DNA of 64,000 nt from Patescibacteria group bacterium (GCA_038065095.1 JBBTRR010000001.1:29652-93651); one strand, 5' to 3'; shown: positions 3,555 through 45,356, numbered from the stretch's first letter. Numbers and translations are program-made. The notes: generated by a model not told the origin, from the letters alone.

Positions 3555-3637
3555 AAACATCATTCCTCGCAGACGACACGGAGGCCTCTCAATTGTAGAA
3601 TCGGTCATCTCCGTGATGCTGTTCGGAATGATGTTTT
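3555..3637 (+). repeat. hairpin repeat HR, subtype 1, copy 1
   Basis: AAAACATCATTCCTCGCAGACGACACGGAGGCCTCTCAATTGTAGAATCGGTCATCTCCGTGATGCTGTTCGGAATGATGTTTT. The flanks are inverted repeats around a conserved core, followed by a T-run. It lies 14 nt after a stop codon. Confidence 0.75.
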
Positions 3638-3655
3638 TTTCTTGAGTTAAAGGTT

Positions 3656-4474
3656 TTGATTTGTTATCCTCTTTACATGAATAAAATAGTTTTTGATGTA
3701 GAAACTCAAAAGGAACTGGCCGAAGTTGGTGGTTTTAGAAATGTTCATTTGTTGGGTATTTCTGTGGTTGGTGTTTACACTTATGCCGACGATACCTACA
3801 AAGCCTACGAAGAAAAAGAACTTCCCGAACTAGAAAAAGTAATGGCAGATGCCAGCTTAATAATTGGTTTTAATACCAAACATTTCGATAACCAAGTTAT
3901 ACAACCTTATTTTAAAAACTTTACCATAGCCGAAGCACCCACATTAGATTTAATGGAAAAACTGGAAGCGGTTTTGGGTTACAGGCCAGGCTTGGGAGCA
4001 CTTGCTAGTGCAACGTTGGGTGAACAGAAATCTGGGCATGGTTTAGAAGCTTTACAGTGGTACAAGGAAGGCAAGATAGATCAAATTAAAAAATATTGTT
4101 TGCAAGATGTTAAGTTAACTAAAGAAGTTTACGAATATGGTTTAAACCATGGTTCGGTGCTTTTTGAATCGCGTGTAAGTGGATTGCAAACTGTAGTGGC
4201 TAATTGGTTTAATGATAAAGAAAAAAAAGATATTCAAGCAGTTTTAGCTGACGCTTTTAAAAATAAAAAATTGGTAGAAATTGATTATGTTTCTATGAAA
4301 TCGGAAGATGGCGAAGAAGCTCGCAAGAAAAGAAACATAGAAATTTATTCTATAAACAAAGATACTGTAGAAGCTTATTGCCATACTCGCAAGGATAAGC
4401 GCTATTTTAAAGTTCATAGAATTTTAGATGCTAAGGTTATAGACGAAGAGCATAAAATTCCTAGTCTTTTTTAA
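3656..4474 (+). CDS. DEDD-type 3'-5' exonuclease (RNase H-like superfamily)
   Basis: Exo motifs FDVET, FN..FD and YCLQD (Y-x3-D). Confidence 0.5.
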   Translation: MICYPLYMNKIVFDVETQKELAEVGGFRNVHLLGISVVGVYTYADDTYKAYEEKELPELEKVMADASLIIGFNTKHFDNQVIQPYFKNFTIAEAPTLDLMEKLEAVLGYRPGLGALASATLGEQKSGHGLEALQWYKEGKIDQIKKYCLQDVKLTKEVYEYGLNHGSVLFESRVSGLQTVVANWFNDKEKKDIQAVLADAFKNKKLVEIDYVSMKSEDGEEARKKRNIEIYSINKDTVEAYCHTRKDKRYFKVHRILDAKVIDEEHKIPSLF

Positions 4475-4482
4475 GGACTTAC

Positions 4483-4511
4483 CCCGACGCAAGGTCGGGG
4501 TGCTCATTTTG
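4483..4511 (+). terminator. intrinsic terminator
   Basis: CCCCGAC-GCAAG-GTCGGGG hairpin followed by TGCTCATTTTG. Confidence 0.6.
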
Positions 4512-4557
4512 TAACTGCTTGTAAATTCGCAGACAAAATGGCATATTACTAAAACTG

Positions 4558-5052: not shown

Positions 5053-5206
5053 ATTTTTTCGCTTTACTCTAAAATTTAGAGTAGTTAGTAATTTGTATTT
5101 AGTAGTTAGGGCAAGGAAGAGTTATTTAAAGAGGAAAAATTTTCCTAAATACTAATTACTCACACTAAGTACTTCTTAATTACTCGCCCTGATCTATTCT
5201 ATTTTT

Positions 5207-5557: not shown

Positions 5558-5593
5558 TCAAAAAGGCTGTTTTTTGGTAGGTTAATTTATCCC

Positions 5594-5621
5594 TTGACAA
5601 GAACTATAAATGGTGTATAAT
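5594..5621 (+). promoter_or_regulatory. sigma70-type promoter, TTGACA - 16 nt - TATAAT
   Basis: TTGACA at 5594-5599 and TATAAT at 5616-5621. It drives the downstream noncoding GC-rich region. Confidence 0.6.
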
Positions 5622-5627
5622 GAGTAT

Positions 5628-6048: not shown

Positions 6049-6130
6049 TAAGGTGTAAATAATAAGCAAAAATATCCCAAGTGAGCAGAGCGACAAGGGA
6101 TTACCCTGATTTTTACGTTATAATCCACTC

Positions 6131-6760
6131 ATGTCCGAATTAGTTTTAGGTATAGATGAAGCCGGTAAGGGCTGTGTCATTGGTCCGCTGTTTTTAGGTG
6201 GGTTTTTAATTTCGGAAGAAGATTATTTAATAGATAAACTTAATAGTTTGGGTATTACCGACTCTAAATTGCTTGTGGCTAAAAAGCGTGAAAGTATCGC
6301 TAAAGAAATTAAAAAAATAGCCCACGGTTATAAAGTTATAAAAATTAGCCCTGCCGATATAGATAAATATTCTATAAATAATTTAGAAATTAAACATTCG
6401 GCTAATTTAATTAATCATTTTTCACCTCATCGAACATATTTGGACGCACCAGTTTCTGGTGCGGGTATTAAAAAATACTGTAATTCTATTAACCTGTTTT
6501 GCTTAAACAAGAACCATAAAATTATAGGTGCTAATAAAATGGATAGCCATAATCTTGCGGTGGCGGCCGCGTCTATTCTGGCTAAGTCGGAACGAGAAAA
6601 ATATGTTAAAATTCTAAAAAAGACTTATGGAGATTTTGGTTCGGGTTATCCATCGGATCCTAAAACTATAAGATGGTTGGCTAATTGGAAAAAAACCAAA
6701 GGTGAATGGCCACCAATTGTGCGCAGGAAATGGTCTACAATATCAAATATAAAAGATTAA
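6131..6760 (+). CDS. rnhB: ribonuclease HII
   Basis: LGIDEAGKGCVIGPLFLGG N-terminal catalytic motif. Size 209 aa. Confidence 0.85.
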   Translation: MSELVLGIDEAGKGCVIGPLFLGGFLISEEDYLIDKLNSLGITDSKLLVAKKRESIAKEIKKIAHGYKVIKISPADIDKYSINNLEIKHSANLINHFSPHRTYLDAPVSGAGIKKYCNSINLFCLNKNHKIIGANKMDSHNLAVAAASILAKSEREKYVKILKKTYGDFGSGYPSDPKTIRWLANWKKTKGEWPPIVRRKWSTISNIKD

Positions 6761-6829: not shown

Positions 6830-8236
6830 ATGAAATTATATTTTTATGGTGGTGCTGGCGCGGTTACTGGTGCAAATTATTTATTAGAATGTGCCCATTC
6901 GACTGGTTCGACAGGCTCACAGCAAGCAGACTCAGGGCAAGCCGTCACCAGAATTTTAATTGATTGCGGTTTGCAACAAGGTGGGCGAATGGCCGAAAAA
7001 GAAAACTACGAAAAATTTGCCTACGACCCCTCAACCATAGATGCTGTTTTTATAACACACGCCCATTTGGATCATGTTGGTCGTATTCCTAAACTTTATA
7101 AAGAAGGCTTTAGAGGAAAGATTTTTAGCACACATGCTACACTAGATTTAGCTCGTGTTAATTTAGATGATTCTTTACACTTGTTAGAAAGAGAAGCCGA
7201 GGAAACTGGTTTAGAACCATTGTTTAACGAAAACGACTTAATTGAATCTTGGAAACTAACTCATGGCAAATCTTACAGCGAAGAAGTAAAAGTAAGTAAT
7301 AGTATTAGGGCTTTTTTTAAAGATGCTGGCCATATTTTAGGCTCGTCTATTATAGAATTTTATCTTTCGGAGGGTAGTCGCAAGATCAAAATAGTTTTTT
7401 CGGGTGATTTAGGAAATTCACCCACACCTCTTTTAAAAAATACAGAAGTTATAACCGAAGCCGATTATGTTTTGGTGGAGTCGGCTTATGGCGATAGAAT
7501 CCACGAAGATCGTTCTCAAAGAAAAGAAAAATTAAAAGCAGTAATTGAATCTGTTGTAAAAAATGGCGGAGTCTTAATGATTCCGGCTTTTGCTTTAGAA
7601 AGAACACAAGAATTACTTTTCGAACTGAATAATCTGGTGGAGTCTGGCCGAATAAAAAAAATACCGGTTTTTATAGATAGCCCTTTGGCTATAAAAGCCA
7701 CAGCAGTTTATCAAAAATATCCAGATTATTTTAACAAAGAAGTAAACTCTTTAATAAAATCTGGCGACGATCTTTTTAACTTTCCGGGTTTGCAGTTTTC
7801 TTTAACCACTGAATCTTCTAAAGCTATAAACAAAGTTTTGCCACCTAAAATTATAATTGCAGGTTCGGGTATGTCGGAGGGTGGGCGAATACTTCACCAC
7901 GAACGTCGTTATTTACCCGATCCAAAATCTGTTCTTTTAATGATTGGTTATCAAACATCTGGTACATTAGGACGCAGGCTCCTAGATGGTGTACAAGAAG
8001 TAAAAATGTTTAGAGAAATTGTTCCTGTAAGAGCTGTAGTGAAGGCTATTGGTGGTTATTCAGCTCATGCCGATCAAACCGGCCTTTTAAAGTGGGTGGG
8101 CGCAATTAAAGGCGTTAAAAAAGTTTTTGTAGTACAAGGCGAAGAAGGTCCGTCTTCTGTCTTAGCAGGAAAAATAAAAGAAAGTTTTGGTTTTGAATCG
8201 ATAGTTCCTGAAGCGGGGCAAGTAATTGAATTGTAG
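6830..8236 (+). CDS. MBL-fold beta-CASP ribonuclease (RNase J / CPSF-like)
   Basis: HAHLDHVG (HxHxDH), beta-CASP-like region, SAHAD motif. 468 aa. Confidence 0.7.
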   Translation: MKLYFYGGAGAVTGANYLLECAHSTGSTGSQQADSGQAVTRILIDCGLQQGGRMAEKENYEKFAYDPSTIDAVFITHAHLDHVGRIPKLYKEGFRGKIFSTHATLDLARVNLDDSLHLLEREAEETGLEPLFNENDLIESWKLTHGKSYSEEVKVSNSIRAFFKDAGHILGSSIIEFYLSEGSRKIKIVFSGDLGNSPTPLLKNTEVITEADYVLVESAYGDRIHEDRSQRKEKLKAVIESVVKNGGVLMIPAFALERTQELLFELNNLVESGRIKKIPVFIDSPLAIKATAVYQKYPDYFNKEVNSLIKSGDDLFNFPGLQFSLTTESSKAINKVLPPKIIIAGSGMSEGGRILHHERRYLPDPKSVLLMIGYQTSGTLGRRLLDGVQEVKMFREIVPVRAVVKAIGGYSAHADQTGLLKWVGAIKGVKKVFVVQGEEGPSSVLAGKIKESFGFESIVPEAGQVIEL

Positions 8237-13592: not shown

Positions 13593-15371
13593 ATGAATCA
13601 AGAAATTGCTAAAATTTTTAAAGAAATATCTATTCTACTTTCAATGCAAGGTGTGGCATTTAAACCGCAGGCGTTTGAGCGGGCGGCCACGAACATAGAA
13701 AACCTAGGCGAGGATTTAAAAGATATATATAAAAAAGGTGGTACTAAGGCTCTAGAACAAATTCAAGGTGTAGGTAAGAGCATGGCAGAAATGATAGAGG
13801 AGTATTTAAAAACAAAAAAAATTAAAGAACATTTAGCTTTAAAGAAAAAAATTCCGGTGGATATAGAGGGCTTAACTAGTGTGGAGGGCGTTGGCCCCAA
13901 GGGTGTATACAAACTTTATAAGAAGCTAGGCATTAGAACCTTAGGCGATTTAGAAAAATCGGCTAAGGCAGGCTTAATTAAAAATTTAGAAGGCTTTGGT
14001 GAAAAATCGGAGGAAAAAATTTTACGTGGTTTAGAGTTTGTTAAAAAGCACAGCGGTAGATATGTTTTAGGTTTTGTTTTACCCGAAATTAGGGAAATTG
14101 TTTTGCGTTTAGAAAAAAGTAAATATGCCGATAAAGTTTTGTTTTGTGGTTCGGCTCGAAGGATGCAGGAAACCATAGGTGACGCCGATATTTTAATAAC
14201 TTCTAAAAATGCAAAAGAAGTTATGGATCTTTTTATAAAAATGCCAGAAGTTGGAAGGGTGGTAGCAAAAGGCGAAACTAAAAGCGTTGTTAAGTTAAAT
14301 AATGGTTTAGAAGTAGACTTGCGTGTGGTAGCGCCCAAAAGTTTTGGGGCAGCGGCGCAATATTTTACTGGTGATAAAAATCATAATGTAGAATTGCGAA
14401 AGATTGCGATAGATAAAGGCTATAAGTTAAATGAGTATGGTTTGTATAAAATTAAAAAATCAAATCTCAAAAATCAAAATTACAATTCAAAAATAAAAAA
14501 TAAAGAAGAATATGTTGCTGGCGAATCAGAAGAGGGCATATATAAGGCGTTAGATATGGATTTTATTCCTCCAGAACTTAGAACCTTAAATGGCGAGATA
14601 GAAGCGGCTCAAAACCATAAACTTCCTAAGCTGGTTGATTACGGCGATTTAAAAGGCGATTTGCAGATTCAAACCAACTGGACGGATGGCGAAAACACAA
14701 TAGAAGAAATGGCTGAAGCCGCTATGAAAATAGGTTTGGAATATATTTTAATTACGGATCATACAAAATCCTTGGCTATGACAGGCGGGTCGGATGAGAA
14801 AAAGTTAGAAAAACAAATGGCAGAAATAGATAAAATAAACAAAAGATCCAAGTTCCAAGATACAGGTTTCAAGATTTTAAAAGGTGCTGAGGTAAATATT
14901 TTAAAAGATGGTTCGTTAGATATAGACGATAAAACTTTAGCTAAATTAGATGTGGTAGGTGTAGCGGTTCATTCTTTATTTAACCTGCCAAAAGCCGAAC
15001 AAACCAAAAGAATAATTAAGGCGATGGAAAACCCAAATGTAGATATTCTTTTTCATCCCACTGGCAGAATTATTAACAAACGACCAGCTTACGAAGTTGA
15101 TATGGAAGAAATTATAAAAGCCGCCAAAAGAACCGGCACGGTTTTAGAAATAGACGCTTTTGCCGATAGGTTAGATTTAAAAGATGAACACATAAGAATG
15201 GCGATAGAGGCAGGTATAAAATTATCCATAGATTCCGATGCGCATCATACGGATCATTTTAAATATTTAGAAATTGGTATTGCGCAGGCGAGAAGGGCTT
15301 GGGCGACAAGGGAAGATATAATAAACACACAACCCTTAGATAAAATGTTAGGATTTTTAAAAAATAATTAA
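13593..15371 (+). CDS. DNA polymerase X family (Pol beta-like domain + PHP domain)
   Basis: HhH motifs GVGKSMAEMIEEY and GVGPKG; the nucleotidyltransferase core; C-terminal PHP (ILITDHT, HS, DSDAHH). Confidence 0.85.
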   Translation: MNQEIAKIFKEISILLSMQGVAFKPQAFERAATNIENLGEDLKDIYKKGGTKALEQIQGVGKSMAEMIEEYLKTKKIKEHLALKKKIPVDIEGLTSVEGVGPKGVYKLYKKLGIRTLGDLEKSAKAGLIKNLEGFGEKSEEKILRGLEFVKKHSGRYVLGFVLPEIREIVLRLEKSKYADKVLFCGSARRMQETIGDADILITSKNAKEVMDLFIKMPEVGRVVAKGETKSVVKLNNGLEVDLRVVAPKSFGAAAQYFTGDKNHNVELRKIAIDKGYKLNEYGLYKIKKSNLKNQNYNSKIKNKEEYVAGESEEGIYKALDMDFIPPELRTLNGEIEAAQNHKLPKLVDYGDLKGDLQIQTNWTDGENTIEEMAEAAMKIGLEYILITDHTKSLAMTGGSDEKKLEKQMAEIDKINKRSKFQDTGFKILKGAEVNILKDGSLDIDDKTLAKLDVVGVAVHSLFNLPKAEQTKRIIKAMENPNVDILFHPTGRIINKRPAYEVDMEEIIKAAKRTGTVLEIDAFADRLDLKDEHIRMAIEAGIKLSIDSDAHHTDHFKYLEIGIAQARRAWATREDIINTQPLDKMLGFLKNN

Positions 15372-15376
15372 TTCAT

Positions 15377-15458
15377 AAATTTGTTCCCTCGTAGACGACA
15401 CGGAGGCCTCTCAATTGTAGAATCGGTCATCTCCGTGATGCTACTCGAGAACAAATTT
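15377..15458 (+). repeat. hairpin repeat HR, subtype 1, copy 2
   Basis: AAATTTGTTCCCTCGTAGACGACACGGAGGCCTCTCAATTGTAGAATCGGTCATCTCCGTGATGCTACTCGAGAACAAATTT. Same core as copy 1, with different but self-complementary flanks. Confidence 0.75.
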
Positions 15459-15467
15459 ATTTTGAGC

Positions 15468-15755
15468 ATGTTTAAAGATAAAGTTTATAAATTTACTAAA
15501 AAAATTCCCAAAGGCAAGGTGGCGACATATAAAAAAGTTGCTATGGCGATTGGTTCACCCAAAGCGGCGAGAGGAGTGGCGATGGTACTGTCTAAAAACT
15601 TTGACCCTAAAATCCCTTGCCATCGTGTTGTAAGAACCGATGGTTCTTTGGGTGGTTATAACCGTGGTGGTATTGTCGCAAAAGCAAAACTACTTAAAAG
15701 TGAAGGAGTCTTGATAGAAAATGGTAAAGTTGACTCAAAAACACATTTAATATAA
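15468..15755 (+). CDS. methylated-DNA-protein-cysteine methyltransferase (MGMT) DNA-binding domain protein
   Basis: PCHRVV active-site motif. The ORF-track start at 15381 merely translates the repeat; ATG 15468 is taken as the start. Confidence 0.75.
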   Translation: MFKDKVYKFTKKIPKGKVATYKKVAMAIGSPKAARGVAMVLSKNFDPKIPCHRVVRTDGSLGGYNRGGIVAKAKLLKSEGVLIENGKVDSKTHLI

Positions 15756-26307: not shown

Positions 26308-26765
26308 AAATAAAAAAACCTTAAAGTTCCTAAAATCCATTTGATAGCTCTTTTTAAGATATTTACATCCTCATCCATCATACCAATACTAGAATTACAT
26401 TGTCGGCAAATCCAGCCACGTATTTCCCCGTTTAGATGGTAGTGGTCTAAGACAACATCATTTTTAAACTGTCTGATTATTGTTCTATCACAGACAGGAC
26501 AGTGGAAAGATTCTCCGAGAGGTGGCATGGGATGGGTTTTTCCATACGCAATTCTCATCTTTATAGGAATTGGTTTTTTCCACTTGCGACAATTCCGACA
26601 TTCACCTCTCCTAGATATTTTTCCCGCAATACTTTTTTGGTTTTTTTCAAACTCAAAAATACTTTTTCTTTGCTGACATCGACGACAAATCTTGGTTTCA
26701 TTAAAACACAAATTACAGAACTCTTTGTGGGAGGCTTTATTACGATTACATTCAGTACAAATCAT
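26304..26765 (-). CDS. Endonuclease VII-family (HNH-like) nuclease with N-terminal Cys-rich Zn-finger repeats
   Basis: CPVCDRTIIRQFKNDVVLDHYHLNGEIRGWICRQCNSSIGMMDED matches the T4 EndoVII/Endonuclease_7 core. ATGA start/stop overlap with the upstream LexA-MTase gene. Confidence 0.6.
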   Translation of the reverse strand: MICTECNRNKASHKEFCNLCFNETKICRRCQQRKSIFEFEKNQKSIAGKISRRGECRNCRKWKKPIPIKMRIAYGKTHPMPPLGESFHCPVCDRTIIRQFKNDVVLDHYHLNGEIRGWICRQCNSSIGMMDEDVNILKRAIKWILGTLRFFYF

Positions 26766-31943: not shown

Positions 31944-32127
31944 TTTGTAAATTATATCTAATTACGACATTTCATGATAATAAATTCTGGCTACCATTCG
32001 CTCGCCCAGCGAGCTTGCTCATTGGTACTGCTCACTCGCTCTTCCCGTAAAACGGGAAACCATGCCCGCTCGTTCGCAGAACCGCGCCAGAACTTATTAT
32101 CCCTTTATTCTTATTAAGGAAAAGACG

Positions 32128-32249
32128 GAACATTATTCCGAGCAGCATCCCGCCAGAGGCGGGCAAGTATGGAGTTTACCTGCCGATGAGGCAGGAAGAC
32201 TATTTATATAATAAAGAGGCTCCATATCGTCTGCGAGGGGTAATGTTCC
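32128..32249 (-). repeat. hairpin repeat HR, subtype 2 long form, copy C (inverted orientation)
   Basis: Reverse complement reads GGAACATTACCCCTCGCAGACGATATGGAGCCTCTTTATTATATAAATAGTCTTCCTGCCTCATCGGCAGGTAAACTCCATACTTGCCCGCCTCTGGCGGGATGCTGCTCGGAATAATGTTC. Matches copy A with compensatory stem changes. Confidence 0.7.
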
Positions 32250-32279
32250 GCTTGGTAATCTGTTATACTTTTAACGTTT

Positions 32280-32831
32280 ATGAAATCTATAGAAGGTATT
32301 ATTTTAAAAAATTCGCCACGGCACGAAGCCGACGCTGTTTTTACGCTTTATACCAAAGAACACGGCTTAATGGAACTGCAAGCAAAAAGCGTACGCAAAC
32401 ATTCGGGTAAACTTCGGCATGGCTTAGATATGTTTAATCATGCCGAAGTGTTTTTTGTACCTTCAAAATATATGCCAATAATTACAGATTTTAAAGTTAA
32501 AGATTCTAATTTAATTTTAAAAAACGATTTATACCGTTTAAAGTTAGCTCACTTTGTGGTTCAAATAATATTTAGAATTTTTGAACCAGGTATGGGCGAA
32601 GCCAAAGTTTGGGAAAAAACTTCCGACTTTTTTTCTATTTTAAATAATAAGCATGCCACTAGAGATGGATTAAAGGAATCGGCTTACCTTTGGTGCTACT
32701 ATATTTTAGATTCAAACGGCTTAAATCCTAGAGCACCCGATTTTAAATTAGAAGACTCTGGCTTACTTAGAACAAGGATCAAATATCTGTTCCTCCATAA
32801 TTTTGGGGTTAATTTAGACAAGCTGATATAA
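32280..32831 (+). CDS. recO: RecO N-terminal domain-like DNA repair protein (short form)
   Basis: EGIILKNSPRHEADAVFTLYTKEHGLMELQAKSVRKHSGKL...FNHAEV pattern resembles the RecO OB-fold N-terminus. No Zn-finger found. Confidence 0.45.
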   Translation: MKSIEGIILKNSPRHEADAVFTLYTKEHGLMELQAKSVRKHSGKLRHGLDMFNHAEVFFVPSKYMPIITDFKVKDSNLILKNDLYRLKLAHFVVQIIFRIFEPGMGEAKVWEKTSDFFSILNNKHATRDGLKESAYLWCYYILDSNGLNPRAPDFKLEDSGLLRTRIKYLFLHNFGVNLDKLI

Positions 32832-36380: not shown

Positions 36381-37327
36381 ATCCTGTCGTTCGTCGCGTT
36401 CTCACCATAGTTACAATCGTCCTTGCGGGGTTTTTAATCCTGCAATTGGCAAGCGTACTGATGGCCATGTCGATTTATTCATGGTTTTTCCAAACCATTA
36501 GGAATGCATCAGGCATGCCTGATGCATTAAATGGGGCAATTAGTATTTGGCTCGTCGCCATCGTTCTGATGCTGCTCCCCACTTTCTTTTCTGCAATCTT
36601 CTTCAGGAAGACTCTAAAGAAGGTGCTCATCGTTGCAGGAGCACTGTCTGGTTGGGTTTTGATTGTATACTTCATGTCTTTGCCAAAGGAGGGACAGTTT
36701 TTCAACCCTATGACTGGGCAGACGATGTATCGTTATGCACGGTCTCCTGACGGCAAGATTGATCTCTTTCCTCTAGGTTACAAATTTCATCCGAGGTATG
36801 GAACAGAGTTGGAACTAGTAACACCAGAGATTATAAAAGAGATTGATCGAAAGGCTACAGAGGCTGTCATGAACCAAGAGAAGGAACAAGAACGACAAAG
36901 ATTGATGAACCTCAATTTGCAAAATGCGCAGAGAGAGAAAGAGCTGGCTCAGCAGAGAGCTGAAGCCAGTGAGCGAAGAGAGAAAGAGGCTCGGGCTAAA
37001 CTTCAGTTCTCTCAGAGAGAGAAAGAGCTGGCTCAGCAGAGAGCTGAAGCCAAAGAAAGCGAACAACAAAATCAGGAACTGGATCGACTCAGGGCTCAAA
37101 TCAAAGAAGGCCAAGAAAAAGTACTTCGACAGATGCGAGAGGATTCTGTTCGAGTAGCAAAGTACCTGGCTGAAAAAGAAGCTCAAGCATTAAAATCAAA
37201 AGAGAAGCCCAAGAAAGATATATGTAATGGTGGTCAGTCTCTTGGTCCAGGCATGTATGCTGGTAAAACATGTTGGGATTCCGACGGAGGAATGTATATT
37301 ACAGGAGGAAGTGTGACTCCTAGATGA
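36362..37327 (+). CDS. membrane-anchored coiled-coil protein with exact 40-nt in-frame direct repeat
   Basis: 3 TM segments, then a Q/E/K/R-rich coiled coil. QREKELAQQRAEA is encoded twice (36929-36968 and 37013-37052). GC-richer than the flanks. Confidence 0.4.
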   Translation: MEVLLMNPVVRRVLTIVTIVLAGFLILQLASVLMAMSIYSWFFQTIRNASGMPDALNGAISIWLVAIVLMLLPTFFSAIFFRKTLKKVLIVAGALSGWVLIVYFMSLPKEGQFFNPMTGQTMYRYARSPDGKIDLFPLGYKFHPRYGTELELVTPEIIKEIDRKATEAVMNQEKEQERQRLMNLNLQNAQREKELAQQRAEASERREKEARAKLQFSQREKELAQQRAEAKESEQQNQELDRLRAQIKEGQEKVLRQMREDSVRVAKYLAEKEAQALKSKEKPKKDICNGGQSLGPGMYAGKTCWDSDGGMYITGGSVTPR

Positions 37328-37532
37328 ACCAAAGAATATAATTAACTTGTGGGTGTCTTTGTATAACCCTTAAAAAGCTCTACGATTTTACAAATGTGAT
37401 ACGTAGGGCTTTTTCTTTTATATTTAAATATAAAGGTTCAACCTTTTCTTTTCTTGTCGGGGTTTTAATATAAAACAAAAACTGCTATTCTATTTTTAAG
37501 ATACATTTAAGTTTAATTTTAAAAAACAAATC

Positions 37533-38804
37533 ATGCATAATTTTATAAAAGATGTTTGGCCAAATGGTTTAAGAGCAATTTATGTGCCGATGCAAGGAAC
37601 TCAAACTTTAACCTTGTTGGTTTTGGCAGGCACTGGTTCGCGTTACGAAACAAAAGATATAAACGGTATTTCGCACTTTTTGGAACACATGTTTTTTAAA
37701 GGTACTACCAAACGTCCTGGCAAATCGGATATTGCTCATGAACTAGATGCAGTGGGTGCGGCCTACAATGCTTTTACAGATAAAGAATTAACGGGCTATT
37801 GGGTTAAGGTGGATAGCAAACATTCCGATTTAGCTTTTGATGTTGTAAGCGATATATTTTTAAATTCTACAATTCCACAAGAAGAAATAGAAAAAGAACG
37901 CGGTGTAATTATTGGCGAAATAGATATGTATGAAGATACGCCAATGCGAAAAATTGGCGACACCTTTGAAGAATTATTATATGGCGATCAGCCTGCAGGT
38001 TGGGATATTGCCGGCAGAAAAGAAGTTATTCGTTCTATAAATCGACAACATTTTATAGATTACATAGATAAGCACTACCGTTCAAAGGGTATTGTGGTTG
38101 TTGTAGCAGGAAATATTACAGCAGAAGATGCAAAAGAAAAAGTTCATAAATATTTTAGTACAGTAAAAGAAGGCGATGTACCAAAACCACTTCCATGTGT
38201 GGAATCTCAAAGTGAACCACAAATAAAAGTTTTTTATAAGGAAACGGATCAGTGTCATATAATTTTAGGTGCTCGGGCTTATAATATGTTTGATCCTCGC
38301 CGTTGGGCTTTAGGCTTGCTCGCCACAATTTTGGGCGGAGGAATGTCTTCTAGATTATTTATAAGAATTCGTGATGAACTTGGTTTGGGTTATTACATTA
38401 GAGCTTCGTCTACACTTTCGCTAGACCATGGTTACTTCGAAGTAAGTTCTGGAGTTGATACTGCTAGAGTATATGAAGCTGTGGAAGCCATAATGACCGA
38501 ATTAAAAAAGATAAAAGTGAATGGAGTAGAGGAAAGAGAGCTTCAAAAATCTAAGGACTTTATAAGGGGAGGAACATTGCTTGGTTTGGAAGCTTCCGAT
38601 GATTTAGCCTCGTTTTTTGGCCTTCAGGAGGTCTTAACCAATAATGTATTGACAGTTGAACAAAAGTTCAGTATGATGGATAAAGTTACTTTGGCCGACA
38701 TTAAAAGTGTGGCCGAAGATATCTTCCAAAATAAAAATCTCAACTTGGCCGTAATTGGCCCGCTTAAGGACAAGGCAGGCTTTGAAGGGATATTAAAATT
38801 TTGA
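37533..38804 (+). CDS. M16-family zinc peptidase (insulinase-like)
   Basis: HFLEHMFFKGT inverted HxxEH zinc motif. Confidence 0.8.
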   Translation: MHNFIKDVWPNGLRAIYVPMQGTQTLTLLVLAGTGSRYETKDINGISHFLEHMFFKGTTKRPGKSDIAHELDAVGAAYNAFTDKELTGYWVKVDSKHSDLAFDVVSDIFLNSTIPQEEIEKERGVIIGEIDMYEDTPMRKIGDTFEELLYGDQPAGWDIAGRKEVIRSINRQHFIDYIDKHYRSKGIVVVVAGNITAEDAKEKVHKYFSTVKEGDVPKPLPCVESQSEPQIKVFYKETDQCHIILGARAYNMFDPRRWALGLLATILGGGMSSRLFIRIRDELGLGYYIRASSTLSLDHGYFEVSSGVDTARVYEAVEAIMTELKKIKVNGVEERELQKSKDFIRGGTLLGLEASDDLASFFGLQEVLTNNVLTVEQKFSMMDKVTLADIKSVAEDIFQNKNLNLAVIGPLKDKAGFEGILKF

Positions 38805-39841
38805 AATCTCAGTCATCTCATACCGATATCAGCATAACCACGGAAACTTTACTCCGTGCTTTTGCTATTGTACTCGGGCTAGCGCTTATCTATTTAATTC
38901 GTGATGTAATAGCCGTACTTTTGTTTTCTATTATAATTGCAGCTGCTATTACACCGCTGGCTAATTATTTTCAAGGTAAAGGCATACCTAGAACCTTAGG
39001 AGTTTTTGCTATATATTTTTTGGCATTCTTGGTTTTAGGTACAATACTTTATTTTATAATTTCGCCATTATCGGATGAACTGGATAATCTTTCTTTGGTG
39101 GTTCCGCTTTATTTTGATAAAGTAGATGGTTTTTTTAAAGTTATTCGAGATTCGGCTCCGCAGTACGAACAGTTGTTAAATAAGGTTCAAGATAATCTTG
39201 TCGCCATAAGCAATGATCTTGCCAACGTCTCAGGAAATATTTTTGGAGCTACTAGCGGAATATTTGGTGGTTTTATTTCTGCGGTTTTTGTTATTGTTAT
39301 TTCTTTTTACCTAGCAGCACAGGAACATGGTATTAATATGTTTTTGCGTGCAGTTACACCAAAAGAAAAACAGCCTTACGTTTTAAATTTATGGTCTCGC
39401 GCCCAATACAAACTTGGACGTTGGCTTCAAGCTCAATTAATTCTTAGCATAATAGTCGGTGTTTTAATTTATATCGGGCTTTTGATTTTTGGAATTAACC
39501 ATAGGGTGCTTTTAGCTTTAATTGCCGGCATAATGGAAATAATTCCAATATTTGGTCCCGTACTGGCTGCGGTCCCCGCTATAATTTTAGGTTTACTAAA
39601 GTCCCCGATAGTAGCACTTTGGGTAATTCTTATATACACTATTATTCATCAATTGGAGAATCATGTTTTTGTGCCTAATATAATGAATCGCGCCGTTGGG
39701 CTTAATCCTGTTATAGTTATAATATCTTTGCTTATTGGTGGTGAACTTTTTGGTATACCAGGTATAATTCTTTCTGTGCCGGTGGCTGTAGTTTTAGTAG
39801 AAATTATAAAAGATTTTGGGCATCATCACGAAGAAGTTTAA
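38801..39841 (+). CDS. AI-2E family transporter (PerM/UPF0118)
   Basis: 8-TM architecture with C-terminal GIPGIILSVPV motif. Confidence 0.55.
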   Translation: MKSQSSHTDISITTETLLRAFAIVLGLALIYLIRDVIAVLLFSIIIAAAITPLANYFQGKGIPRTLGVFAIYFLAFLVLGTILYFIISPLSDELDNLSLVVPLYFDKVDGFFKVIRDSAPQYEQLLNKVQDNLVAISNDLANVSGNIFGATSGIFGGFISAVFVIVISFYLAAQEHGINMFLRAVTPKEKQPYVLNLWSRAQYKLGRWLQAQLILSIIVGVLIYIGLLIFGINHRVLLALIAGIMEIIPIFGPVLAAVPAIILGLLKSPIVALWVILIYTIIHQLENHVFVPNIMNRAVGLNPVIVIISLLIGGELFGIPGIILSVPVAVVLVEIIKDFGHHHEEV

Positions 39842-39864
39842 AATGAATTAATCTTTATCAAAAT

Positions 39865-39977
39865 ATCAGCCTTCACAGACGACATGGAGCCTCTTTATTT
39901 ATATAAGATAGTCTTCCTGCCTATGGCAGGTAAACTCCATACCTGCCCGCCTTTGGCGGGATGCTGTTCAGGCTGAT
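39865..39977 (+). repeat. hairpin repeat HR, subtype 2 long form, copy A
   Basis: ATCAGCCTTCACAGACGACATGGAGCCTCTTTATTTATATAAGATAGTCTTCCTGCCTATGGCAGGTAAACTCCATACCTGCCCGCCTTTGGCGGGATGCTGTTCAGGCTGAT. 24 nt after a stop codon. Confidence 0.75.
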
Positions 39978-39990
39978 GTTTTGAAAACTC

Positions 39991-41472
39991 ATGAATAAGT
40001 TTTATATTACAACCGCTATTGATTATGTTAATGGCAAGCCTCACATTGGACACGCTTTAGAAAAGATTCAAGCGGATGTTTTGGCGCGTTACCACAGAAT
40101 AAAAGGTGATGACGTGTTCTTTTTAACGGGCACCGACGAACACGGTGTTAAGATTTTTCGTGAAGCCGAAAGAGCTGGTAAAGATACGCAGGATTTTGTA
40201 AACGAAAATGCAGAATATTTTAAACAATTAAAAACCGTTTTAAATCTTTCTTGGGATGAATTTATTAGAACTACCGATAAAGAAAAACATTGGTTGGGAG
40301 TTCAAAAGTTATGGCAGAAGCTTTACGAGGCTGGTGATATTTATAAGAAAAAATATAATGGTCTTTATTGTGTTGGCTGTGAATCTTTTAAAACAGATAG
40401 AGATTTAATAGATGGTAAGTGTCAGGATCACCAAAAAGAACCAGAACTGGTTGAGCAAGAAAATTGGTTTTTTAGGCTTTCAAAATATCAAAAAGAAATA
40501 GAATCAAGAATTAAGAATAACGAATTAAGAATAATTCCGGAGTCCAGAAAAAATGAAATTTTGTCTTTTATAGAATCGGGTTTAGAAGACATTAGTTTTT
40601 CTAGGCCAAAAAAAGATTTACCGTGGGGTGTTCCTGTGCCAAACGATGCAGATCAAGTAATGTATGTTTGGTGCGATGCTTTGTCTAACTATATAACCGC
40701 AATTGGTTATGGTGATGAAACCGAGCAATTTAAAAAACTTTGGCCGGCTGATCTTCAGATTATAGGTAAAGATATTTTGCGTTTTCATGCTGCTATTTGG
40801 CCAGGCATACTTTTGTCGGCTGGTTTAGCTTTGCCTAAAAAGCTTTTTGTTCACGGTTTTGTTTCAGTAGAGGGGCAAAAAATGTCTAAAAGTTTGGGTA
40901 ATATTGTAGACCCTGTGTCGCTTGCTAAAAAATATGGAACAGATGCTTTGCGTTATTATCTTTTACGAGAAATTCCTTCATACGAAGATGGAGATTTTAG
41001 TTTAAGAAAATTTGAAGATAGATATTCTGCGGATTTAGCTAATGGTTTAGGAAACTTAGTGGCGCGAATAGTGACTTTAGGAGAAAAAAACCACCCTTCT
41101 GGTAGTATCTCTTTTGATTTTGGAGATGACATCATTGATATGGTCAAAAAAGAGAGTAATCGTATTTTCCGTGAATACGAAAATAAAATTTCAGAATTCA
41201 AACTGCATGAAGCCTTGGGGGTTGTCTGGGAACTTATAGGTATAGCTGATAAATATATTAACGAGACAAAGCCATGGGAAAAATACGATATAATTTTAAG
41301 TGGTGAATTTAGAAAAATAATGGCGAATTCTGGTTATTTGCTGGGTGTTATACTAAATTTAGTTGAGCCATTTTTGCCAGAAACAGGTGAAAGAATTAGA
41401 AAACAGATTTGGTTTACGGAATCTGCGATAAACTTTAAGAAAGGAGAAAATTTGTTTCCTAGGTTAAATTAA
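39991..41472 (+). CDS. metG: methionyl-tRNA synthetase (minimal form)
   Basis: IDYVNGKPHIGHA (HIGH), KMSKSLGN. Confidence 0.9.
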   Translation: MNKFYITTAIDYVNGKPHIGHALEKIQADVLARYHRIKGDDVFFLTGTDEHGVKIFREAERAGKDTQDFVNENAEYFKQLKTVLNLSWDEFIRTTDKEKHWLGVQKLWQKLYEAGDIYKKKYNGLYCVGCESFKTDRDLIDGKCQDHQKEPELVEQENWFFRLSKYQKEIESRIKNNELRIIPESRKNEILSFIESGLEDISFSRPKKDLPWGVPVPNDADQVMYVWCDALSNYITAIGYGDETEQFKKLWPADLQIIGKDILRFHAAIWPGILLSAGLALPKKLFVHGFVSVEGQKMSKSLGNIVDPVSLAKKYGTDALRYYLLREIPSYEDGDFSLRKFEDRYSADLANGLGNLVARIVTLGEKNHPSGSISFDFGDDIIDMVKKESNRIFREYENKISEFKLHEALGVVWELIGIADKYINETKPWEKYDIILSGEFRKIMANSGYLLGVILNLVEPFLPETGERIRKQIWFTESAINFKKGENLFPRLN

Positions 41473-41484
41473 ATACACAAAAAC

Positions 41485-41559
41485 ATCGTTCCTCACAGAC
41501 GATATGGAGCCTCTTTATTTATATAAATAAGTCTTCTCCATAATGCTGTTCGGAACGAT
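41485..41559 (+). repeat. hairpin repeat HR, subtype 2 short form, copy B
   Basis: ATCGTTCCTCACAGACGATATGGAGCCTCTTTATTTATATAAATAAGTCTTCTCCATAATGCTGTTCGGAACGAT followed by ATTTTTTC. 13 nt after the metG stop. Confidence 0.75.
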
Positions 41560-41576
41560 ATTTTTTCTTAAACATA

Positions 41577-42404
41577 ATGAATCCAAAATTAATAGACGCT
41601 CATACGCACGTTCAATTTGCTACATACAAAGACGATAGAGACGAAGTTATAAAAAGATCTTTAGACACTGGAATTTGGATGGTTAATGTTGGTACGCAAA
41701 TAGATACTTCGCTTGAGGCAATTAAACTTGCCGAAAAATATTCACAAGGTGTTTATGCAACTGTTGGCTTGCATCCGGTTCATACGGATAAATCGTTTCA
41801 TGACAAAGCTGAGCTTGGTGAAGGAGGAATGGAATTTACTAGTAAGGGTGAGGTTTTTGATTACGAGGAATATAAAAAATTGGCGCTTAATCCAAAAGTT
41901 GTGGCTATAGGTGAGTGCGGTTTAGATTATTATCATTCGGCAGAATATAGAAAAAAACAGGAGAAAGTTTTCATAGAACAAATAGAATTAGCATATGAGG
42001 TTAAAAAACCTTTAATGATTCACTGTCGCAAAGCTTTTGACGATTTATTAAATGTTTTAAGGGATAATCGGCATAAATTACAAACTGTTCCGGGTATAAT
42101 ACATTTTTTTAGTGGTGACTTGAAACAAGCGACCATGCTTTTAGATATGGGTTTTTATTTTACATTTGGCGGTGTAGTAACTTTTACTCGCGATTACGAC
42201 GAAATTATAAAAACTGTTCCTATTAACCGTTTGCTTTTAGAAACTGATGCTCCTTATGTAACTCCAGCGCCATTTCGCGGTCAGCGTAACGAGCCTGTGT
42301 ATGTGGTGGAGGTGGCTAAAAAAATTGGTGAAATAAAAAATATTGATTTCGAAGAAGTTTCTCATCACACCATAGAAAACGCAAGGAACATTTTTAAAAT
42401 ATAA
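41577..42404 (+). CDS. tatD: TatD-family metal-dependent DNase/hydrolase
   Basis: LIDAHTHVQF and TatD motifs throughout. Confidence 0.85.
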   Translation: MNPKLIDAHTHVQFATYKDDRDEVIKRSLDTGIWMVNVGTQIDTSLEAIKLAEKYSQGVYATVGLHPVHTDKSFHDKAELGEGGMEFTSKGEVFDYEEYKKLALNPKVVAIGECGLDYYHSAEYRKKQEKVFIEQIELAYEVKKPLMIHCRKAFDDLLNVLRDNRHKLQTVPGIIHFFSGDLKQATMLLDMGFYFTFGGVVTFTRDYDEIIKTVPINRLLLETDAPYVTPAPFRGQRNEPVYVVEVAKKIGEIKNIDFEEVSHHTIENARNIFKI

Positions 42405-42463
42405 TTTGTAAATTATTCTCTATTGTTATATTCTGTCATAAACCATAATTAAGGAGGTCAAAA

Positions 42464-42751
42464 ATGGCAAAGCCTAAGACCAAACGAGTAATTATAGGAA
42501 CCAGTATTACCGCAACCAGAGCTGTGAAGGGAAAGGTTCCCGAGACATCTTTATTATGTAAGATCCCCAATGTTCTTTTAAGTCTAGATCAGCGTACGCA
42601 TATCGCCGTATACAAGCCTGATGGCTCTCTGGATACTGGGAATATTTTCAAATTCGAGATAGCAGCAGATACTCTTGCTATAACCATGGATGAAAATAGC
42701 AAGGTAGAAAGTATTACACGTTCTTATCGCCTTGAAGAAAAAACAGAGTAG
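42464..42751 (+). CDS. hypothetical protein
   Basis: GGAGGTCAAAA-ATG RBS. 95 aa. A terminator (AAATCCGCCTATCGGCGGATTTTTC) follows. Confidence 0.35.
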   Translation: MAKPKTKRVIIGTSITATRAVKGKVPETSLLCKIPNVLLSLDQRTHIAVYKPDGSLDTGNIFKFEIAADTLAITMDENSKVESITRSYRLEEKTE

Positions 42752-42875
42752 TTCTGTGTAACAAATAAATCCGCCTATCGGCGGATTTTTCTTGCTTTAA
42801 ACCTCCTTTTTCGCTATTTTAGATAGATACAAATGGCTCCTCCTTCGCGCAAGGCTACGGAAGGACAAGTAAAAA

Positions 42876-45266
42876 ATGAAGTACAACCATAAAAAAGTAG
42901 AATCTAAATGGCATAAGAAGTGGGTTTTAGAGAAGGTTTATGAACCCGATCTTAAAAATGCCAAGAATTCATACTATAACTTGATGATGTTTCCATATCC
43001 TTCAGCCGAAGGGTTACACGTGGGTAATATGTATGCTTTTGTTGGTAGCGACATTCATGGGCGTTTTAAAAGAATGCAGGGCTTTAATGTTTTTGAACCG
43101 ATTGGCCTTGATGGTTTTGGCATTCATTCCGAAAATTACGCTTTAAAAATTGGCGAGCATCCTATGGATCAAGCTAGAGTTTCCGAGAAGAATTTTTACC
43201 GCCAATTACAAATGATAGGTAATGGTTTTGCTTGGAATGAAAAATTAGAAACTTACGATCCCGAATATTATAAATGGACTCAATGGATTTTTATTCAGCT
43301 TTATAAAAAAGGTTTGGCTTATCGTAAAAAATCGGCAGTTAATTGGTGCCCTTCTTGCTTAACAGTTTTAGCCGATGAGCAGGTTATTAGCGGTGAATGC
43401 GAAAGGTGTAATACAAAAGTTATTAAAAAAGAACTAGAACAATGGTTTTTTAGAATTACCAAATATGCCGATAAGCTTTTAAAGGGTTTGGATAAAATTG
43501 ATTGGAGTGAAAAAGTAAAAATCGCACAACGGAATTGGATAGGTAAATCGGAAGGCGCTTCTATTAAATTTAGTTTAGTAGATGTTACAGGTCAAAAAAA
43601 TGGCAAACATTTTGTAGAAGTTTTTACTACACGCCCAGATACAATTTTTGGCGTAACTTTTGTTGCAATTTCACCAGAAAAGGCAAAGTTTTGGTTAGAT
43701 ATTGGTTGGCAAGCAGGTGAAGAAGTAAAAAGTTATATTACTAAAGCTCTTTCCGAAAGAGTTGCTAAAGATCAAAACCAAGATAAGGATAAATCCGGCA
43801 TATTTTCTGGTATCTTAGCAGTTAACCCAGCTAATAACGAAAAAATTCCAGTTTGGATTTCGGATTATATTTTGGCCGGCTATGGCACAGGTGCTGTTAT
43901 GGGAGTTCCAGCGCACGATGAGCGTGATTTTGAATTTGCTAAAAAATTCGAGTTGGCAATAAGTGACGCGTCTCTTGTTTCCATCGAAGAAGGAATAAAA
44001 AAAAGTGGCGGCAAAAAAACAGTTCAATTTCGACTTCGCGATTGGTTGATTTCTCGCCAGCGTTATTGGGGTGCGCCAATACCAATGATTCATTGTGAAA
44101 AATGCGGCTGGCAAACAGTGCCAGAAAAAGATTTACCAGTTAGATTGCCTTACATAAAAAACTTTAGGCCAACTGGTACAAGCGAGTCGCCTTTAGCAGC
44201 CAATGAAAATTTTTATAAAGTTAAATGTCCTAAATGCGAAGGTGTAGCCAGAAGGGAAACCGATGTTTCCGATACATTTTTAGATTCGGCTTGGTATTAC
44301 CTCGGATATCTTATGCTCGGAAATAAAAAATCTCTACTTCGCCGAGGCTACGCAGGGCAAGCAAAAAATAAAAAATTCTATTTTGATGGCGGATTAGTTA
44401 AAAAATGGTGCCCGGTGAACATGTATATTGGTGGCGCGGAACATTCTGTTTTGCATTTATTGTATGTTCGTTTCTTGGCAATGGTTTTTAAAGATTTACG
44501 TTTAACCAATTTTGGCGAACCTTTTAAAAAGTTTAGGGCACATGGCTTGTTAATAAAAGATGGGGCTAAGATGTCGAAATCGAAAGGGAACGTTATTAAT
44601 CCCGATGAATATATTAAAAATTATGGTGCCGATGTTTTAAGAATGTACTTAATGTTTTTGGGACCGTTTGATCAAGGTGGTGATTTTAGAGACGGTGGAA
44701 TAAAAGGAATAACCAGATTTTTAGATAGAGTGTGGAAAATTGCTAATAGCGACAAGCGATCCCACTACGCTAAAGCTTCGAGGGACGGGCAAGGGACAAG
44801 CGAAGAATTAAATAAGAAAATACACAAAACTATTAAGAAAGTTACGGAAGATATAGAAAATTTAAATTACAATACTTCGATTTCGGCTTTGATGGTTTTG
44901 TTAAATGAATTTGAGGCAAATATGGAATCTGTTGGTAAAAACGAATTAGAAATTTTTACTAAGCTTTTAGCGCCATTTGCACCACACATGAGCGAAGAGG
45001 TTTGGCGAGAAATTTTAAAGAATAAAAAATCTATTCATATAGCGCCTTGGCCAAAATTTGATTCTAAGCTAATTAAAGACGCAGAAGTAGATGTGGTGGT
45101 TCAGGTTAATGCTAAAATGCGCGCGGTTATAAAACTGCCTGCGGGTGCCTCGCAAAAAGATGTTGAAATCGCCGCTAAAAACAACGAAAACATTTCTAAA
45201 TATCTTATTTCCCCAATTAAAAAAGTTATCTTTATTAAAGATAAATTTATAAATTTTGTGGTTTAA
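42876..45266 (+). CDS. leuS: leucyl-tRNA synthetase
   Basis: HVGNMYAFVGSDIHGR (HIGH-region), KMSKSKGN, CP1 editing domain. Confidence 0.9.
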   Translation: MKYNHKKVESKWHKKWVLEKVYEPDLKNAKNSYYNLMMFPYPSAEGLHVGNMYAFVGSDIHGRFKRMQGFNVFEPIGLDGFGIHSENYALKIGEHPMDQARVSEKNFYRQLQMIGNGFAWNEKLETYDPEYYKWTQWIFIQLYKKGLAYRKKSAVNWCPSCLTVLADEQVISGECERCNTKVIKKELEQWFFRITKYADKLLKGLDKIDWSEKVKIAQRNWIGKSEGASIKFSLVDVTGQKNGKHFVEVFTTRPDTIFGVTFVAISPEKAKFWLDIGWQAGEEVKSYITKALSERVAKDQNQDKDKSGIFSGILAVNPANNEKIPVWISDYILAGYGTGAVMGVPAHDERDFEFAKKFELAISDASLVSIEEGIKKSGGKKTVQFRLRDWLISRQRYWGAPIPMIHCEKCGWQTVPEKDLPVRLPYIKNFRPTGTSESPLAANENFYKVKCPKCEGVARRETDVSDTFLDSAWYYLGYLMLGNKKSLLRRGYAGQAKNKKFYFDGGLVKKWCPVNMYIGGAEHSVLHLLYVRFLAMVFKDLRLTNFGEPFKKFRAHGLLIKDGAKMSKSKGNVINPDEYIKNYGADVLRMYLMFLGPFDQGGDFRDGGIKGITRFLDRVWKIANSDKRSHYAKASRDGQGTSEELNKKIHKTIKKVTEDIENLNYNTSISALMVLLNEFEANMESVGKNELEIFTKLLAPFAPHMSEEVWREILKNKKSIHIAPWPKFDSKLIKDAEVDVVVQVNAKMRAVIKLPAGASQKDVEIAAKNNENISKYLISPIKKVIFIKDKFINFVV

Positions 45267-45273
45267 TTTTTCT

Positions 45274-45356
45274 AAAATATCATTCTTCGCAGACGACACG
45301 GAGGCCTCTCAATTGTAGAATCGGTCATCTCCATGATGCTGCTCAGAATGATATTT
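45274..45356 (+). repeat. hairpin repeat HR, subtype 1, copy 3
   Basis: AAAATATCATTCTTCGCAGACGACACGGAGGCCTCTCAATTGTAGAATCGGTCATCTCCATGATGCTGCTCAGAATGATATTTT. 8 nt after the leuS stop. Confidence 0.75.

Follow-up and report, generated by a model that had tools for sequence, protein, structure and literature searches.

A 64,000-nt stretch of DNA from a Patescibacteria group bacterium (GCA_038065095.1, JBBTRR010000001.1:29652-93651), called the window below, carries seven copies of hairpin-forming, non-coding repeat modules of 85-125 bases, which lie in tiny spacers between housekeeping genes. The repeats fall into two families, A and B, that are linked by A/B chimeras, and we give about an even chance to the reading that all of these make up one lineage-specific superfamily of small interspersed palindromic repeats of the Parcubacteria group of the candidate phyla radiation (CPR), analogous to REP, ERIC and BOX elements. 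Repeats of this general kind are familiar, and this superfamily is not catalogued in the resources that we searched; its new aspects are its lineage, its modular architecture, constraint at the level of single loci, and a strand asymmetry of the fold. The window lies on a contig of 384 kb (a 384-kb contig) that comes from groundwater metagenomes of the Hainich. Its genes, almost all on the plus strand, are housekeeping genes (UvrB, RuvA, Mur ligase, RNase HII, PolX, several aminoacyl-tRNA synthetases, IF3/L35/L20, SmpB beside tmRNA, ParAB, P-type ATPases), and none of the genes in the window encodes a transposase or integrase. We place the host in the Parcubacteria group because the closest relatives of its methionyl-tRNA synthetase (MetRS) are those of a Yanofskybacteria metagenome-assembled genome (MAG; 84%) and of unclassified "bacterium" MAGs (81-82%).

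A preliminary description, made from the sequence of the window alone, had reported six hairpin copies, and all six were found where it had placed them, far above chance. The core AGACGAYAYGGAG occurs exactly six times in the window; with up to two mismatches allowed there are eight matches against 1.4 expected, the two additional ones lying inside open reading frames (ORFs). For each of the six, the predicted fold is a single, long and imperfect hairpin (−29.5 to −51.8 kcal/mol; z = −3.8 to −7.0 relative to dinucleotide shuffles). The two subtypes that had been distinguished, the long form with its pair of additional GC hairpins, and the differing loops of the two long copies were likewise confirmed on the sequence. 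The copies are, by position:

3551..3644, plus strand: c1, family A, short form, subtype 1 (palindrome 3554-3637; covariance model R1, 96.7 bits), after a 186-aa hypothetical gene (stop 3541) and before an RNase H-like/WYL gene.
15373..15466, plus strand: c2, family A, short form, subtype 1 with a compensated TAG/CTA stem (91.9 bits), after PolX (stop 15371).
32120..32252, minus strand: c6, family A, long form, subtype 2 (50.9 bits; extra hairpins 32179-32195 and 32149-32167), in the divergent PMT/RecO spacer.
39857..39989, plus strand: c4, family A, long form, subtype 2 (53.4 bits; extra hairpins 39916-39930 and 39942-39960), between the AI-2E transporter (stop 39841) and MetRS (ATG 39991).
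41477..41571, plus strand: c5, family A, short form, subtype 2 (98.1 bits), between MetRS (stop 41472) and TatD (ATG 41577).
45271..45364, plus strand: c3, family A, short form, subtype 1 (97.2 bits), between LeuRS (stop 45266) and Sua5/YrdC (GTG 45367).
47286..47392, plus strand: family B copy (covariance model, 21 bits), filling the SHMT/PAP2 spacer.

The family B copy is a seventh hairpin element, missed before and picked up by the covariance model. As had been stated, c6 (copy C of the preliminary description) lies in a 336-nt divergent spacer and overlaps a 74-aa ORF (32186-32410). The consensus proposed for all copies holds in its core; c2 carries ATGCTACTC and not ATGCTG(T/C)TC, and the consensus is not contiguous in the long form, where the second hairpin parts CTCCAT from ATGCTG. 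The public gene call for an MGMT-like DNA-binding protein (15381-15755) has its TTG start at 15381, inside c2, and the in-frame ATG at 15468 is likelier.

Read from the outside inwards, an element opens with an A-run and a 13-17-bp outer stem of loose consensus AAAAcATCAyTCC, whose outermost pairs vary as long as they are complementary. There follow an internal loop that is asymmetric and conserved (family A has TCxTC, family B TCGCTCxTCGCTC), an RYAG/CTRY stem with a bulged A, C-G and G.U pairs and an A.A mismatch, and a YRYGGAG/CTCCRYR stem topped by a conserved apical CCTCTYWATT...GTCWT motif; a T-run stands at the far end. The stem is 35-45 bp long, interrupted, and AT-rich at its base. 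That stem changes are compensatory, as had been claimed, is true in general: the inner stem occurs as CAC/GTG, TAT/ATA and CAT/ATG, c2 has TAG/CTA (its ATGCTA compensating TAG) where the other copies have CAG/CTG, and the outer stems of c1 and c3 differ by two double (compensatory) changes. An uncompensated C.A in the inner stem of c3 departs from the claim. Among 39 short copies from the window and other genomes, standard pairing was found in 94.5% of cells against 82.8% in shuffles, and both partners had changed in 18 of 27 stem pairs (133 cells); none of 500 shuffles reached the observed values, and slid registers paired in 36-57%. The search patterns behind the copies demanded AGACGA, GGAG, CTCC and ATGCT; they placed no constraint on apical motif, triplet or outer stem, nor, for the metagenome set only, on the 3′ arm. 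The original proposal of a superfamily of intergenic imperfect hairpins with structure-preserving variation is supported.

Family B (n = 11 distinct copies) has an AT-rich outer stem, a direct repeat TCGCTC...TCGCTC that forms a 6 × 6 loop, and an AAGGAGG/CCTCCTT stem; the window copy has a GGGGG/CCCCC stem and an apical CCTC..TTAT motif. The apical motif CCTCTTTAT is common to both families. Modules of the two are combined in chimeras, two of which (L066:11488 and L069:2975) join a family A outer stem to a family B core, while a third (L085:3251) places family B loops around a family A apical region. Small GC hairpins that start with CCTGCC are insertable modules, present twice in each long-form copy and once, at a new position, in L105. 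We rejected the idea that these are independent small GC hairpins, as CCTGCC...GGCAGG modules in the window were found only inside long-form copies. A host terminator stem with a mobile core in its loop was also rejected, given that the outer stem has its own consensus (AAAAcATCAyTCC) and that empty sites are without a palindrome. K-turn, C/D-box, hammerhead-like and attC motifs had been read by eye; the GA-bulge geometry or core sites are absent and Rfam was negative. The elements do share with integron attC sites a superficial likeness, as 60-140 bp imperfect palindromes that follow genes, with variable sequence, conserved structure and extrahelical bases. They have no RYYYAAC/GTTRRRY core sites at their ends, however, their flanking genes are syntenic housekeeping genes and not cassettes, and the window is without an integrase, so that an identity with attC sites is barely conceivable.

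Two comparisons of orthologous copies, neither pair of which had been selected by the search patterns, show individual copies to be under purifying selection, as judged from their substitution counts. The first concerns a composite element between dprA and topA, just beyond the right end of the window, whose family A part occupies the window-equivalent positions 68159-68251. Against the congener C4_maxbin.104, in which the flanking genes are 86-87% identical (third positions 71-74%), the family A copy has 4 differences in 84 nt, compared with a third-position divergence of 26-29% (P = 1.4e-7). The stems of the family B copy at this locus are kept or covary (GGGAGG/CCTCCC to AGGAGG/CCTCCT), and its loop has diverged. 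The second comparison is that of c5, between MetRS and TatD, with its counterpart in the related genome L064: over 87 nt the copies are separated by about 4 substitutions plus an indel in the loop (~95% identity), at a locus where third positions are 62-64% identical (36-38% divergence), and the changes include one compensatory pair and one C.A repaired to T-A. The earlier conclusion that the fold is under selection is therefore retained on a different basis, because these orthologous comparisons are stronger than covariation among paralogous palindromic copies. Conservation in a 96%-identical sister strain was discarded as evidence of constraint, since divergence there is mosaic and all spacers are quiet. 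Between strains of the H52 and H41 wells (window 37520-51259 versus L003), divergence is 8.4-8.6% in the M16 and AI-2E genes, 0% in MetRS, 4% in TatD and less than 2% further right; this pattern suggests recent recombination between co-existing strains.

Folding models further show a systematic difference between the strands, the stronger hairpin being that of the strand which usually runs antisense to the flanking genes. On the strand that reads AGACGA, the stems of 46 distinct family A copies contain 716 Watson-Crick pairs, 52 A.C, 7 G.U and 7 other mismatches; counted by stem position, A.C occurs at 13 and G.U at 4. Each A.C on the AGACGA strand becomes a G.U on its complement. With RNA energies the complement is the more stable strand in 44 of the 46 copies (mean −37.0 versus −31.3 kcal/mol, p = 1e-8), and in all 11 family B copies, by ~10 kcal/mol. 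The internal loops of the complement read as tandem G.A (GA × GA in family A, GA-GC-GA in family B); a chimera variant, TCATTC, gives GA-AT-GA on the complement and, like TCGCTC, retains a self-complementary centre. What the preliminary description called the sense orientation is thus the one that folds more weakly. Mutation bias was considered as a source of the A.C excess and rejected, because the gene-sense spectrum favours C↔T over A↔G (115 versus 84) and would yield G.U. Third positions on the gene-sense strand of this genome have T>A and G>C.

All 29 family A copies that could be mapped to flanking ORFs are intergenic. Of the 24 contexts in which both neighbours run in the same direction, 19 have the AGACGA strand in gene sense and five have it antisense; the remaining contexts comprise two one-sided sense cases, two convergent spacers and one divergent spacer. 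Family B copies are oriented similarly (8 sense, 2 antisense, 1 convergent), and beyond the right end of the window the genes turn to the minus strand and the orientation of the elements flips too. The better-folding strand is thus antisense to genes in ~80% of cases. Adjacent pairs are oppositely oriented in four of five instances (L020, L062 = L118, L063 and L069), the tandem pair being in L091. In the window, five copies do follow a stop codon with their AGACGA strand in gene sense, as first noted, at a measured distance of 5-23 nt and not 8-25 nt. This closeness reflects the tiny size of the spacers in these genomes, where empty orthologous ones measure 25 nt. At the other end, the next start codon stands 8-17 nt after the element (MetRS, TatD, Sua5, the MGMT-like gene and topA), leaving no room for a promoter, and we infer from this that the elements would be co-transcribed with their neighbours inside polycistronic mRNA.

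These positions bear on the simplest alternative, that each element is a plain intrinsic (bidirectional) terminator, or a 3′-end mRNA stabiliser, acting on the gene-sense transcript. Most copies are flanked by an A-run and a T-run, a T-rich tail past the palindrome is present on the AGACGA strand only, and that strand is gene sense in the 19 of 24 contexts given above. Both copies in convergent spacers are sense to their upstream gene, and a promoter-like repeat comes after a family B hairpin upstream of MetRS in L066. Some A/T-flanked REPIN classes are, moreover, thought to have been co-opted as terminators (PMC3337134). The sense fold is nevertheless the weaker one in 44 of 46 family A and 11 of 11 family B copies, and the essential genes MetRS, TatD, Sua5 and topA begin so close to the elements that there is no promoter room for a restart, while the same junctions work in related genomes with a 25-nt spacer or with overlapping genes. 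The T-run that had been described after the copies is present in most of them, but the conserved dprA/topA copy is followed by an A-run. Copies in divergent spacers have nothing to terminate, the conserved loop and apical sequence are left unexplained, and ordinary small GC-rich terminators exist in this genome. The terminator option of the preliminary description is accordingly poorly supported, and we consider it unlikely. A plain terminator of this genome is exemplified by a small bidirectional terminator-like hairpin at 42767-42788, AAATCCGCC-GATA-GGCGGATTT.

The absence of promoter room would be accounted for if the element were a portable terminator-plus-promoter cassette, in which upstream transcripts form the hairpin and stop, and transcription of the downstream gene restarts at a promoter (ACGAYA, 16-17 nt, TAnAAT) located in the 5′ arm and the apical loop. 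Subtype 1 contains a promoter-like match, ACGACA-17-TAGAAT, that scores 9 of 12, subtype 2 has TATAAA at the same spacing, and both copies in divergent PMT/RecO spacers face a gene start. Promoter-like matches in the region are, however, at chance level (54 versus 53.3 in shuffles). The −10-like hexamer is unconserved, one whole subfamily having TAGATG in its place and family B lacking a matching −35/−10 pair, and on these grounds an internal promoter was rejected. The five antisense and two convergent copies would also fire into genes the wrong way, and the strand asymmetry would have no explanation. We regard this cassette as very improbable.

Four related genomes (L063 to L066) match the gene order of the window perfectly from PMT to PAP2, and their orthologous spacers are occupied as follows:

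AI-2E to MetRS: window, family A, long form; L063, empty (25 nt); L064, another repeat; L065, empty (25 nt); L066, family B.
MetRS to TatD: window, family A, subtype 2; L063, family B plus an inverted family A variant; L064, family A, subtype 2; L065, family A, subtype 1; L066, A/B chimera.
LeuRS to Sua5: window, family A; L063, family B; L064, another repeat; L066, family B.
SHMT to PAP2: window, family B; L063 and L064, genes overlap (empty).
PMT/RecO: window, family A, minus strand; L063, family A variant, plus strand; L064, locus without PMT and RecO; L065, empty (25 nt); L066, other elements.

Occupancy is thus shown to turn over by loss, gain, replacement or recombination of modules, with the same junctions being reused. 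The MetRS to TatD copy of L065 belongs to a different subtype and is 61% identical, which, as read from the sequences, is replacement and not drift. A third repeat of the related genomes, ATTCGTATcATTCGCATnnATTCGTAnATTAGTAT (L064:9901-10000 and 15028-15135; L066:9951-10000), lies immediately before the MetRS and Sua5 starts, and in the window the corresponding spacers carry hairpin elements; it may serve as a promoter module, perhaps one for leaderless transcripts. In the PMT/RecO spacer of the window, between the PMT start and c6, there is also a GC-rich block of ~125 nt (31976-32102) that ends in TTCTGGC...GCCAGAA. It is 86% identical to L066:2155-2286, which lies inverted in the same spacer, although identity between the two MetRS proteins of these genomes reaches only 73%. 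Its minus strand folds better (−57 versus −45 kcal/mol), and its only Rfam match is a weak, wcaG-like one (E = 0.55). The block is a candidate for a conserved small RNA, or for a further palindromic element.

Orthologous spacers that hold, lack or exchange an element, together with the chimeras, would also be expected of a purely selfish, non-autonomous repeat that some HUH/Y1-type or other enzyme mobilises in single-stranded hairpin form, in the manner of REPIN or IS200 elements. The better-folding complement would then be the active strand, and the orientation bias a survivorship effect. This reading also draws on the assemblies that break inside copies, on conserved unpaired bases and bulges that resemble protein recognition features, on the tolerance of wobble on one strand, and on a RAYT-like Y1 gene in a related genome. 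That gene, in L066 (6696-7373), encodes a Y1 transposase of 225 aa that is weakly RAYT-like (35 bits against a cutoff of 80), and a palindrome without kinship to families A and B, GTGCAAWATCWGATWTTGCAC, occurs in its flanks (6640-6670 and 7375-7410) and in its interior. A RAYT/REPIN link through this gene was rejected, as its flanking palindrome (GTGCAATATCAGATATTGCAC) is a different one and no Y1 gene lies near family A copies: none was found in the window and its ~8-kb extensions, and tblastn detected none near any copy in ~600 kb of loci. Other transposases were likewise not seen beside copies. The palindrome has no fixed ends, its outermost pairs being GT/AC, GG/CC, AG/CT, TC/GA or GC/GC and always complementary, and terminal inverted repeats with fixed termini are absent among the copies compared. 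Direct repeats of at least 2 nt flank 15 of 46 copies against ~5 expected, but their length and sequence are not constant and the elements lack sharp boundaries; between empty and filled orthologous sites, divergence is too great for an alignment. No consistent signal of target-site duplication emerged, and the idea was set aside. A long autonomous parent was rejected as well, since each of the ~33 genuine metagenome matches either has the 3′ arm 30-71 nt after the 5′ arm or reaches the end of its contig. The option of a miniature inverted-repeat transposable element (MITE), which the preliminary description had offered, fails on these same features, and a classical MITE has poor support. Further points against a selfish element are that similarity within genomes shows no excess, that the asymmetry is weak with DNA energies, and that orthologous copies keep ~95% identity over species-level divergence, unlike inert insertions. 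A recent burst within genomes was rejected, within- and between-genome similarity being equal. We hold a selfish element to be possible but doubtful.

About 50 further distinct copies were found in related MAGs and metagenomes (18 MAG, ~33 metagenome). The MAG scan covered 185,579 species-representative genomes, with loop and core letters fixed and three stem positions free, and returned 55 matches against ~53 expected by chance. The free triplets are complementary in 18 of these matches, all of them in five CPR MAGs, and are of five types (CAC/GTG, CAT/ATG, TAT/ATA, CGC/GCG and TAC/GTA); one more complementary match looks like chance, and the others are GC-rich coding noise. When metagenomes were scanned with only the 5′ arm, 49 loci were returned; ~33 copies among them are genuine, come from various Hainich wells as well as unrelated sites, and always lie in an AT-rich context, and contigs often terminate inside copies. 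Viral contigs gave 0 matches and phage records none, and a phage origin was rejected on this account. When the whole window was compared with Rfam at gathering thresholds, only tmRNA and tRNA-Leu were matched; permissive scans of the element regions on both strands gave nothing on the elements, the best score (17.8 bits against a threshold of 42) falling on a neighbouring block. No Rfam family thus matches any element, and a verbatim literature search returned no match to it either. Some of the carriers are labelled "Candidatus Saccharibacteria" (L011, L017, L024, L025 and L059 in CAYJTN01; L014, L041 and L054 in CAYHXG01). For the P-type ATPase that neighbours the copies in these two MAGs, the nearest named homologs are from the Parcubacteria group or generic Patescibacteria, including a 58% match, which makes the label appear doubtful. 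A spread across CPR phyla was therefore rejected, and the superfamily is claimed for the Parcubacteria group only.

The likeness to REP/BIME elements proposed at the outset is upheld, in that the repeats are intergenic, multicopy and hairpin-forming. REP sequences can lie inside operons and affect mRNA. REPINs are short non-coding imperfect palindromes that are intergenic only, occur in many copies and in both orientations, are in some cases A/T-flanked, and persist for long in a lineage (PMC3337134). They differ from the elements described here in having conserved REP units at both ends, each a small palindrome, around a variable spacer; here the centre is conserved, the ends vary, and the arms are not themselves palindromes. 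There is also no GTAG-type terminal motif, no RAYT beside any copy, and no dominant master sequence within a genome. ERIC elements are ~100-nt imperfect palindromes of transcribed intergenic regions that are present or absent at orthologous sites and have no transposase of their own. BOX elements are modular, and secondary structure is the route by which BOX, RUP and SPRITE have been judged likely to influence genes transcribed with them (PMC3049150). Like ERIC and BOX, the present elements are imperfect palindromes of ~100 nt in spacers that are probably transcribed, in both orientations, with variable occupancy and no coding capacity. Unlike them, they show a systematic strand asymmetry of the fold, and they have no sequence relationship to ERIC/IRU or to the BOX of S. 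pneumoniae, which belong to a different phylum. The pneumococcal repeats have been judged parasitic, whereas here single orthologous copies show clear purifying selection. With MITEs derived from insertion sequences (IS), such as Correia and RUP, the elements share small size, lack of coding capacity, a palindromic structure, intergenic position and variable occupancy; they are without fixed terminal inverted repeats, a consistent target-site duplication or a parent IS, and every 5′ arm meets its own 3′ arm within 71 nt. Rho-independent terminators resemble them in the hairpin and T-run of most copies, and bidirectional ones also in the upstream A-run, but not in the 35-45-bp interrupted stem, the conserved loop and apex, the weaker gene-sense fold and the lack of promoter room; the ordinary terminators of this genome, too, have another appearance. 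We say that the elements work like such systems and not that they are members of them, because membership of REPINs, MITEs or attC sites fails on defining features.

How the elements might act can be sketched from the folds. In the sense transcript, an element would form a weakened hairpin, with A.C mismatches and a pyrimidine loop, that RNA polymerase and ribosomes could pass and that may protect or process the upstream message as REP sequences do. A strong hairpin in this direction would be polar, so the weak orientation may be tolerated or selected there. The opposite strand would form a near-perfect hairpin, with G.U pairs and tandem G.A, that ends in a short U-run; this could either stop antisense transcription or be the form recognised by the machinery that exchanges elements. 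A bolder version, which we think quite unlikely, is that selection has built direction-dependent transcription "valves", a single copy blocking antisense transcription while letting the operon through, and a back-to-back pair blocking both directions.

Several observations weigh against our interpretation of the elements as a REP/ERIC/BOX-like superfamily with a directional fold. The "invariance" of the core motifs is partly built in by the search patterns that demanded them. The 52 A.C cells are not independent, 15 of them coming from one widespread subfamily; an invariant G.U is on the AGACGA strand, and is C.A on the complement; and T-rich sequence past the palindrome is found only on the AGACGA strand. 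DNA energy parameters give a small asymmetry, the complement being better in 6 of 9 pairs. Similarity is 0.647 within genomes and 0.646 between them, with no sign of recent copying, which leaves the mechanism of turnover unexplained, and no trans-acting protein was found for the elements. Which strand becomes RNA, and any termination, are matters of inference here.

Other features of the window were noted in passing. A diversity-generating retroelement (DGR) occupies 61533-64000, with a target gene at 61533-62366, a variable repeat at 62235-62350, a template repeat at 62661-62776, bAvd at 62826-63143 (minus strand) and a reverse transcriptase that starts at 63163 and runs past the window; 16 of 27 mismatches between its repeats are at template adenines. 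The DGR of L064 sits instead between a ProRS-like gene and an M16 peptidase gene. Two genes, at 26762-28279 (minus strand) and 56744-58606 (plus strand), combine LexA DNA-binding, S24 peptidase and N6/N4 DNA methyltransferase domains in one protein, and adjoin endonuclease genes (Endonuclease_7 at 26304-26765 and MvaI/BcnI at 58603-59424, respectively); from their domains, these pairs look like restriction-modification systems whose methylase is fused to a LexA-like part. An exact 40-nt direct repeat (36929-36968 and 37013-37052, 84 nt apart) lies in a 321-aa ORF without a Pfam match. Two small hypothetical genes that lie side by side, and are probably paralogs, are linked by a 156-nt repeat (1205-1360 and 2378-2533, 77% identity).

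Few known genomes are as compact as those of the CPR/Patescibacteria, and what is non-coding in them has hardly been explored; in the window, the superfamily fills a large share of the spacers. The elements break assemblies and cause miscalled gene starts, and a covariance model for them would improve annotation. Their strand-asymmetric fold is unusual and directly testable. If they act on transcripts, they would be among the chief factors that set operon structure and the fate of mRNA in these bacteria, and if they are mobile, they would point to a mobilising activity that has so far gone unrecognised. Should direction-dependent valves prove to be the right reading, the elements would provide portable gene insulation in genomes with almost no intergenic DNA.

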